Sequence record: KP869112
Source: Escherichia coli O157 typing phage 14
Direction: 5' to 3' (one strand)
Length of the DNA: 64,000 nt
The translations under genes were made by a program, and so were the position numbers. The notes below the pieces were generated by a model. That model did not search any database. It worked only from the letters and a program-made list of their open reading frames with translations, and had not been told where the DNA came from. Below, piece after piece: positions 43,081 to 43,320 of this stretch; position 1 is the stretch's first letter, and each line of letters opens with the position of its first letter.

Positions 43081-43320
43081 GTTCGCCGCAGGGTGGTATT
43101 CCCTGCGACTTGTCCAGCGTCCTGGACCAGCAAGACCCAACAAGTGGGTTACCAGAGCCCATTACCGCGCTTTGGCTAGACCTTATTACAGGTTGGCTGG
43201 GGTCACATCGTCATGTGCTGGCTGCCCCTACCATTTTAAGTGTGGTGCACTATCAAGCCCTCTAAGGGGAACTCAGACTTCTCCGAACCCTGTTTCAAAG
43301 CATCCGGAGATAAAGCCATC
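43081..43320. other. GC-rich island without a convincing ORF; candidate structured RNA
   Basis: GC content visibly above the flanking AT-rich DNA; hairpins such as GCAGGG-UGGUAUU-CCCUGC; only short track ORFs (62-71 aa); shares motif TGTG(G)TGCACTAT with island 44560-44860. Confidence 0.3.

Follow-up and report, generated by a model that had tools for sequence, protein, structure and literature searches.

A GC-rich island near the tRNA genes of Escherichia coli O157 typing phage 14 very probably encodes a structured RNA with a three-way-junction motif shared by T4 and other virulent phages

What is the function of a GC-rich stretch of phage DNA that no credible gene occupies? The question arises in Escherichia coli O157 typing phage 14 (record KP869112), of which 64,000 nucleotides (nt; hereafter the window) were analysed. 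Between the stop codon of open reading frame (ORF) 75 and the promoter P74, which precedes ORF74 and a cluster of transfer RNA (tRNA) genes, lies a gap that we call island 1. An earlier note on this DNA, made from the sequence alone, had described a GC-rich, non-coding island at 43081-43320 and had paired it with a second one upstream. We find that island 1 is non-coding and under purifying selection, and that it very probably specifies a structured RNA carrying a member of a new conserved motif. Sequence comparison indicates that this motif, a 47-nt three-way junction, is one instance of an RNA family that is absent from Rfam and occurs in virulent gamma-proteobacterial phages of at least six otherwise unrelated lineages, T4 included. 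The motif appears to be undescribed so far.

The composition of the region agrees with the earlier description. The GC content of 43081-43320 is 51-56%, compared with 31-42% on either side (100-nt windows), and the only ORFs that cross island 1 are short (30-71 amino acids). The bounds that had been given, the ORF75 stop codon and a TTGACA-17-TAAAAT site, are both present, the latter as an 11/12 consensus match. To assess constraint, we compared variability among five rV5-like phages (the window, V5, L059, L073 and L100). In ORF75, 17 of the 18 variable columns fall at codon position 3 (17 of 81 third positions, 21%), whereas the 15 variable columns among the 287 of island 1 (5.1%) show no codon periodicity and amount to a variation ~4-fold below that of ORF75 synonymous sites. 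The hallmark of a protein-coding sequence, a conserved frame with changes mainly at codon position 3, was not found in island 1. We give practically no credence to a small protein encoded here, for which the candidates are a 30-residue ORF (43328-43236) and a 36-residue ORF annotated in phage EmilHeitz. Minus-strand ORFs do exist, one of them annotated as hypothetical in MZ501062, but all four substitutions in the 30-residue frame are non-synonymous, its stop codon is lost in L059, a promoter replaces its 5' half in the more distant relative L115, and a Shine-Dalgarno sequence is not evident on direct reading. The small 'hypothetical proteins' called over island 1 in several GenBank records are probably spurious.

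The same comparison points to RNA. Island 1 folds better than shuffled sequences on the transcribed minus strand (z = -2.47, against -1.30 on the plus strand), and all five substitutions that fall within stems predicted by RNAalifold among the rV5-likes keep the pair via wobble changes. Purifying selection without codon periodicity, covarying helices and a fold z of -2.5 together make a function at the RNA level likely, in keeping with the earlier view of the island as a structured element that annotation does not explain.

The part of this RNA that is informative beyond the rV5-like phages is its 47-nt core. A 2.6-kb query around island 1 gave end-to-end hits in 117 Vequintavirus (rV5-like) genomes at ~97.5-98% identity, including phage V5 (DQ832317); the window is itself a Vequintavirus, ~97.5% identical to V5. 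A sensitive BLAST search with island 1 returned 118 rV5-likes and ~705 further phage genomes, T4-like (Straboviridae), in which the match is limited to query positions 99-141 at 86-93% identity. T4 itself is identical to the core at 40 of 43 positions, and the similarity ends abruptly on both sides; the match lies in the denV-vs.8 spacer (ORF 64.0 of the 1986 sequence), and in Jiaodavirus, Dhakavirus, Mosigvirus and others the motif is likewise upstream of a vs.8 homologue. Pattern scans added the N4-like (Schitoviridae) Klebsiella phage KpCHEMY26, ~46-kb siphovirus contigs related to Salmonella phage STGO-35-1, a Kagunavirus-like contig with an endolysin similar to those of enterobacterial siphoviruses of ~40-46 kb, and contigs similar to phages of Pseudoalteromonas and Vibrio. 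No hit came from two pattern scans that covered 185,579 species of bacteria and archaea at one genome per species, and BLAST gave no match in 5,426 E. coli genomes.

Neither the catalogues nor the literature that we searched name this element. Like the catalogued phage RNA motifs (Rfam 15; PMC10690425), it is a conserved structured RNA in phage intergenic DNA recognized through comparative analysis, but it differs from those of Rfam 15 in that none of the 4227 models matches the window island or the T4-like loci, even at E-values up to 10. Only tRNAs pass the Rfam gathering score in the window, in tests that included hammerhead, twister, pistol, hatchet and hepatitis delta virus-like ribozymes and known riboswitches, and the best scores in island 1 (9.7-12.1 bits) belong to unrelated eukaryotic or archaeal small-RNA families, small nucleolar RNAs and one microRNA. 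The core sequence was not found printed in the literature searched: the rV5 genome paper does not discuss island 1, the literature on vs.8 and denV is uninformative on the motif, and a T4 omics paper mentions RNAC and RNAD as the sole such RNAs (PMC9697503). Fremin et al. 2023 list 10,006 viral candidates without names (PMC10690425), and the motif may be one of them.

The 37 distinct 47-nt variants align without gaps and define a common architecture of a closing stem (P1), two hairpins (P2 and P3) and a junction strand. The family consensus is (A/G)CCU-GURANA-AGG(U/C) for P2, followed by C-N-AGC-(6 nt)-GCGGUAA; the window conforms to it, reading ACCUGUAAUAAGGUCUAGCCAAAGCGCGGUAA. Twenty-one columns are invariant and five more are conserved in at least 90% of the variants. 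The GURANA hexaloop, the AGC...GCGGUAA segment and a bulged G are fixed, while the helices covary: standard pairs occupy 90.4% of the cells, against 76.3% in shuffles (0 of 500 reach the observed value) and 27-45% with slid partners. The inner P1 pairs 5-43, 6-42 and 7-40 are never unpaired, and each is realized by two to five pair types (CG 29/GC 8; CG 23/GC 8/UA 3/AU 2/GU 1; AU 17/UA 9/UG 7/CG 4). P2 has one compensatory change within the 37 sequences (L039), and the same GCCU/AGGC stem recurs outside the alignment in the diverged second copy of L093. P3 is invariant in the alignment, and a U-A/C-G swap in diverged second copies of some T4-likes suggests that it too is a helix. A covariance model of the family has one hit in the window (64.1 bits), at 43200-43154 of the minus strand; when all rV5-like sequences are left out, the resulting model (R2) scores the same segment at 61.1 bits (E ~1e-17; next hit 14.7 bits). 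The covarying P1 with its bulged G, the P2 and junction consensus and the score from the held-out model all place the window in the family. Mimicry of a tRNA-Tyr anticodon loop was also considered, as CUGUAA is common to the motif and the phage tRNA-Tyr loop, and was rejected because the register of A-U to G-C covariation implies a 6-nt loop and not a 7-nt one.

The core is embedded in a larger conserved unit, which is seen by comparison with a distant relative. An ORF74 homologue search led to L115, a 139,863-bp contig whose ORF74 is 69% identical and which has the order of the window: ORF76, ORF75, island, ORF74 and tRNA-Arg. Its motif scores 63.1 bits with compensated P1 changes (C-G to G-C, G-C to A-U), and it retains the stretch GGGCUUGAUAGUGCACCACACU unchanged. 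The segment CUUGAUAGUGCACCACACUU, invariant in the five rV5-likes, is identical in L115 bar its last base, where the U of the window is a G. In hairpin H3, four compensatory pairs distinguish the inner stem of the window from that of L115 (CACAU/AUGUG as against CUACG/CGUAG), the changes in the outer stem are likewise compensated and the loop is GACG in both; the layout of H3 is also present in T4-type elements. Pairing in H1 survives two L073 substitutions (G-C to G-U, U-G to U-A), and in L115 this lineage-specific hairpin gives way to a near-consensus promoter, TTGACA-17-TATACT, ending ~7 nt before the conserved segment. On the other side of the core, an A-to-G change in L059 and L100 retains an H6 pair (U-A to U-G), L115 has an analogue of H6 in a GCCAG...CUGGC hairpin, and the sole substitution in H7 falls in the loop. 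The deeply conserved unit extends from ~43272 to 43154 and continues via three more hairpins to ~43085 (Table 1).

Table 1. Features of island 1 and its surroundings, with window coordinates.
Feature	Position	Strand	Basis
ORF75; its stop codon bounds island 1	43368..43610	minus	
Promoter-like TTTACA-N17-TATCAT overlapping the ORF75 end; possible own promoter of the island RNA	43349..43377	minus	consensus match only, 10/12
Island 1, whole GC-rich non-coding gap from the ORF75 stop to the -35 hexamer of P74	43081..43367	minus	GC profile, ORF list, variability, fold z
Hairpin H1 (UCUCCGGAU...GUUCGGAGA), lineage-specific, outside the deeply conserved unit	43280..43310	minus	RNAalifold
Segment sequence-conserved with L115: GUUCCCC, H2, unpaired stretch, H3, 47-nt core	43154..43272	minus	alignment
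Small hairpin H2 (CCCC-UUAG-AGGG region)	43258..43269	minus	fold; kept in L115 with one loop-side change
Conserved stretch CUUGAUAGUGCACCACACUU, containing GTGCACTAT read on the other strand	43238..43257	minus	unique in the window
Two-tier hairpin H3 (GGGG-CAGCCAG-CACAU-GACG-AUGUG-A-CCCC), adjoining the 5' side of the core	43199..43228	minus	L115 comparison
47-nt three-way-junction motif	43154..43200	minus	T4 identity, covariation, covariance models
P1, closing stem: A-U, bulged G, then C-G, C-G, G-C, A-U	bulged G at 43160		
P2: ACCU-GUAAUA-AGGU	43193-43180	minus	
P3, 2-bp mini-hairpin: GC-CAAAGC-GC	43176-43167	minus	
Junction strand GGUAA	43166-43162	minus	
Hairpin H5 (ACCCA-CUUGU-UGGGU)	43135..43149	minus	invariant among rV5-likes; not alignable in L115
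Hairpin H6 (GUCCAG-GACG-CUGGAC), GACG loop as in H3	43112..43127	minus	fold, RNAalifold
Hairpin H7 (GUCGCAGGG-AAUACCA-CCCUGCGGC), without a following U-tract	43085..43109	minus	fold, RNAalifold
Promoter P74, TTGACA-N17-TAAAAT, extended -10 (TG)	43080->43052	minus	consensus scan 11/12; annotated P74 in phage V5
ORF74	42685-43023	minus	
Seven tRNA genes	42588-41776	minus	ARAGORN

These changes also bear on whether the element acts as RNA or as DNA. A protein-binding site, a recombination or homing target, part of an origin, or the remnant of a decayed tRNA or mobile element could be imagined here: identical short DNA in unrelated phages could mark the target of a homing endonuclease, a replication origin (iterons and the initiator ORF79) is placed 1.8 kb away, and relatives have tRNA genes at the same position. 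We nonetheless regard a DNA-level role as very unlikely. P1 covaries with G-U pairs that are compatible solely with the transcribed strand, the stem changes in H3 are compensatory, purifying selection on the island implies that it is not decaying, and nothing tRNA-like is detected by ARAGORN or the Rfam tRNA model. A tRNA or tRNA-like island was accordingly rejected as a candidate: ARAGORN places its seven tRNAs at 41776-42588 and none in the island, and there is no Rfam tRNA match in 43076-43350 at E-values up to 10.

How would such an RNA be made? Every gene in this neighbourhood is encoded on the minus strand, as in the V5 and EmilHeitz annotation, and in the direction of transcription the order is ORF79, iterons and an AT-rich tract, island 2, ORF77, ORF76, ORF75, island 1, P74, ORF74 and the seven tRNA genes. 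The promoter-like site at the ORF75 end has a -10 hexamer that reads TATGAT in L073 and remains -10-like. A scan for terminator-like sites on the minus strand of 42500-45300 found none, and H7 continues into GGCGAACUUGAC where the U-tract of an intrinsic terminator would follow a GC-rich hairpin. The RNA would be made early from sigma-70-type promoters, through read-through from P75, from the TTTACA-17-TATCAT site or, in L115, from a promoter of its own; with no terminator in its path, transcription would probably run on through ORF74 and the tRNA cluster, with processing to follow.

The genomic company of the motif fits this picture. Motif and tRNA genes share a strand in four lineages. In the window, tRNA-Arg follows the motif after 566 nt, and in four contigs of ~46-kb siphoviruses tRNA genes follow it after 199-355 nt. 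In L091 and KpCHEMY26 the order is the reverse: the motif comes 168 nt after tRNA-Ile in the former and 1.2 kb after a seven-tRNA cluster in the latter. It does not adjoin the tRNA cluster in the T4-likes. The placement with tRNA genes, together with early-type promoters without a terminator, suggests co-expression and processing with the phage tRNAs. Elsewhere the motif may form a transcription unit of its own, given the L115 promoter just upstream of it and, in L080, a promoter-like site on one side of it and a strong intrinsic terminator on the other. Among GAP31-like relatives, the homologue of ORF74 is found within 16-23 tRNA genes, tRNA genes occupy the position of island 1 and the motif is not present. 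In L116-L118 (GAP31-like Seunavirus), this homologue, a small protein whose N-terminus is basic and whose C-terminus is acidic, is encoded in the middle of the tRNA array, which suggests that the protein is itself linked to the tRNA region.

The ~46-kb siphoviruses and KpCHEMY26 also have ORF-poor regions of 0.9-1 kb beside their tRNA genes (for example L083 5100-5900 and L109 2368-3372). These consist of segments between repeated, mutually complementary arms (AGUGCUCUUUCCGUUGUG / CACAACAGGUAAGAGCAUU), one of the segments being the motif, and contain a T-arm-like GGUUCAACUCC. Their appearance is that of a series of small RNAs released by processing.

The tRNA arrays of phages require processing. 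The motif could be a cis-acting element of the transcript: a processing or stability signal, a structure at the 3' end of the upstream unit, a new self-cleaving ribozyme or a put-like antiterminator that allows RNA polymerase to continue into the tRNA cluster. It is always oriented with transcription and placed between cistrons, often just upstream of a promoter (P74; its L115 counterpart at 2445-2473; GTTTAC in JS10-type elements) or of a terminator (L080), and its position between complementary arms upstream of tRNAs in the ~46-kb siphoviruses resembles that of processing stems. However, no Rfam ribozyme model matches, the window offers no downstream terminator for an antiterminator to override, and a simple protective hairpin does not need 26 positions that are invariant or at least 90% conserved across phage families. 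We consider a role of this kind unlikely.

The T4-like loci raise the alternative of a cis-acting leader, such as a riboswitch-like aptamer or a translational operator, for the next gene, which would be ORF74 here and vs.8 in the T4-likes. Small junctions with conserved junction nucleotides are typical of aptamers. The T4-like element ends 20-40 nt before the vs.8 start codon, and according to RNAalifold the core could instead pair with a conserved hairpin further downstream (GCC-ANGGAA-GGC), an alternative confined to the T4-likes and without compensatory support. The genes downstream, however, differ from lineage to lineage (the Vs.8 P-loop protein, ORF74, another ORF in Slopekvirus-like loci, tRNAs, or a terminator). 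In both the window and L115 a strong promoter separates the motif from ORF74, so that most ORF74 messenger RNA would be without the motif, and an expression platform of the terminator or Shine-Dalgarno-sequestering type was not seen in the window. Overall, a leader is quite an unlikely explanation. Taken together, the cis-acting roles (leader, processing or 3'-end element, antiterminator, ribozyme) seem to us on the improbable side, yet deserving of attention.

Several further observations concern the T4-like loci. The motif occupies the middle of a conserved spacer of ~150 nt that precedes vs.8 (for example L007 1138-1297 and L004 1398-1560), which also holds an upstream hairpin laid out like H3, with one covarying pair, and, immediately ahead of the ribosome-binding site of vs.8, one or two downstream hairpins with ANGGA in the loop (CsrA-site-like). 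The Vs.8 protein contains a Walker A (GGRQTGKS) and a Walker B motif (IIIDEP). Three T4-like contigs (L035, L093 and L097) contain two tandem motif copies ~110 nt apart. The second copy has diverged (39-47 bits); its junction is shortened, and P2 and P3 have undergone compensatory changes. In the T4 mutant clone T4_7t1 (L003, OL964745; ~2436-2500), a deletion of vs.1-vs.8 fuses the sequence after the motif to the regB promoter, and the motif is retained. The IMG/VR copy of Escherichia phage Av-05 (L021/L033, 120,938 bp) has the T4-type arrangement, in which the motif precedes a homologue of vs.8, here with 87% identity to T4 vs.8.

The explanation that we favour is that island 1 is the locus of a structured non-coding RNA, read from the minus strand, that docks a conserved host factor; as a whole it is, in our estimation, probable, by a modest measure. 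In its folded form, the RNA would serve as a docking site or a decoy for some macromolecule that gamma-proteobacterial hosts have in common, with a target probably in RNA metabolism or translation; neither antisense pairing nor joint action with island 2 would be involved. The fixed loop and junction nucleotides place the function in a compact fold. The partner is most simply a host component conserved in gamma-proteobacteria, given that flanks, neighbours and proteomes differ among the carriers and that bacteria lack the motif. Antisense action is unlikely because the conserved unpaired segments are too short; a duplex scan of the conserved unpaired stretch against the window had been run for an antisense seed, and its scores were within the expected extreme-value range. 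We infer the transcript ends, the processing and the binding partner of the island RNA, and on its own the proposal of a trans-acting docking site or decoy is a tentative one, possible but short of an even chance.

Several considerations weigh against this explanation. The shuffle controls carry no correction for sequence relatedness. Most of the examples from outside the rV5-likes were retrieved by patterns that fix many core positions, so that invariance is partly built in, the P1 positions being free. P2 and P3 are near-invariant and rest on sequence conservation, the one compensatory change in L039 and the few changes in second copies. The position of the motif directly 5' of an ORF in the T4-likes also fits a cis-acting role, and its proximity to tRNA genes may partly reflect the scarcity of non-coding space elsewhere in phage genomes.

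In status, the island RNA most closely resembles T4 RNAC and RNAD (species 1 and 2 RNAs). These too are phage-encoded, non-coding, structured RNAs of ~120-170 nt placed with tRNA genes and probably co-transcribed with them, and the same-strand association with a tRNA cluster is shared by the window motif (566 nt) and three other lineages. The resemblance does not extend to sequence: the single T4 locus found by BLAST with the island is denV-vs.8, not rnaC or rnaD, and within T4 the motif is several kb from the tRNA cluster, unlike RNAC and RNAD. RNase P processing and stability are documented for RNAC and RNAD and are conjectural for the island RNA. The functions of RNAC and RNAD are still unassigned (PMC9697503).

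A second comparison is with the lambda nut site. There, boxB (GCCCU-GAAAA-AGGGC) presents a 5-nt GNRNA loop on a 5-bp stem and is preceded by boxA (CGCUCUUA-like). P2 (ACCU-GUAAUA-AGGU, or GCCU-GUAAAA-AGGC in one lineage) is similar in its CCU...AGG stem closed by U-A and in its purine-rich, GNRA-like loop. However, the P2 loop has 6 nt and not 5 in all 37 variants, P2 is set within a three-way junction, a boxA-like sequence is not visible in island 1 on reading, and the phages that carry the motif are virulent, not lambdoid. Island 1 therefore lacks the features that define a nut site.

The P2 hexaloop GUAAUA is, in addition, identical to that of helix 44 of 23S ribosomal RNA (1093-1098), in the GTPase-associated centre that forms the L11/thiostrepton site. 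The E. coli 23S sequence (~1085-1120; L113 3340-3375) reads GCGUAAUAGCUCACUGGUCGAGUCGG, with GGUCGAG 8 nt downstream of GUAAUA, where the motif has GUAAUA, a single A and then GGUCGAG. By a rough estimate, this adjacency in 23S is unlikely to arise by chance, and we regard it as a lead or a curiosity; mimicry is not supported by the covariance model, which found no match in the E. coli rrnH operon or rnpB. The L11-binding three-way junction differs from the motif in helix order and in its second hairpin, and other motif lineages have GUAAAA, GUGAAA or GUAACA loops.

The earlier note had gone further in proposing that island 1 and the GC-rich island upstream of the ORF75-77 cassette (island 2) are related, sharing a TG(T)GTGCACTAT...GCCC RNA motif or protein-binding site that brackets the cassette. 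The two 20-mers it quoted are present (43241-43260 and 44765-44784), both islands are GC-rich and ORF-free and fold better than shuffles on the minus strand (z of -2.47 and -2.76), and GTGCACTAT occurs in each. The proposed kinship nevertheless dissolves on comparison. Aligned locally, the islands agree at best in 13/16 positions (E = 1.1). GTGCACTAT has two occurrences in the window where 0.66 are expected, a count matched by 11 of 100 shuffles, and TGCACTAT has three where 2.4 are expected. In close relatives, the 9-mer of island 2 is unconstrained, reading GTAGTGCAC, TTGGTGCAC or ATAGCGCAC and bordering an 18-nt indel, and covariance models of the island 1 core found nothing in island 2. 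The islands also occur independently: island 2 matches Vequintavirus only whereas the island 1 core crosses families, and L115 has island 1 with no island 2 near it, which leaves no pair of related elements flanking the cassette. A common origin or shared function is hardly credible. Thus the shared motif proved to be at chance level within the window, whereas no conserved protein frame, the other finding that would have told against the note, runs over island 1, where no coding signature was seen. In island 1, GTGCACTAT falls within a stretch that is 100% conserved in L115; this conservation belongs to the island 1 RNA alone, and the informative homology is that of a different segment, 43154-43200.

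Island 2 (44530-44860, minus strand) is itself ORF-poor and GC-rich, with a fold z of -2.76 on the minus and -1.74 on the plus strand. BLAST finds it in Vequintavirus genomes only, at 90-97% identity with indels, its central ~150 nt being conserved and its flanks variable; the 56-residue ORF78 annotated over it in V5 is doubtful. It may be a separate non-coding RNA or an origin-associated element. Next to it, 44860-45160 combines an AT-rich tract (22-28% GC) with six 21-bp iterons (ATGTGTCCGTATCACGGACAG, 44967-45093). Among the neighbouring proteins, Pfam and PHROGs gave a function for ORF79 only, that of a replication initiator; this ORF (45168-45518), beside the iterons, matches the replication-initiator family phrog_12838 at E = 5e-80, and many records call it a 'transcriptional regulator'. 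The iteron region and ORF79 are likely to form the replication origin.

Two further observations concern annotation. Eighteen MG0656xx records labelled 'Campylobacter phage', host Campylobacter jejuni, are ~98% identical to E. coli rV5-like phages here, which makes the host label questionable. The tRNA-like gene at 42021-42119 (minus strand) is unusually long (97-99 nt) and is assigned a 4-base anticodon by ARAGORN; it scores 35.5 bits against the Rfam tRNA model with a 26-nt insertion in the variable region, and is annotated as tRNA-Lys in EmilHeitz and not annotated in V5.

The distribution of the motif bears on how lytic phages deal with their hosts. That 47 nt persist nearly unchanged in phages sharing almost no protein genes, and are absent from bacteria and prophages, suggests that one host interaction is exploited by many lytic phages of gamma-proteobacteria. 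A bolder proposal, speculative and in our view fairly unlikely, is that the junction represents a new class of functional RNA module used across phages. As a decoy or mimic, it might sequester either a conserved gamma-proteobacterial factor involved in translation or RNA metabolism or a defence nuclease directed at RNA; alternatively, it might be a new small aptamer or a ribozyme. If this were true, unrelated virulent phages would have acquired and retained the module independently, T4 among them, where it would have been overlooked between denV and vs.8. If confirmed, the motif would be a new conserved structured RNA in T4, the best-studied phage, as well as in rV5-like, N4-like and several siphovirus groups, and would provide a short, defined reagent for pull-downs, for mutagenesis and for exploring links to tRNA biology or anti-defence.

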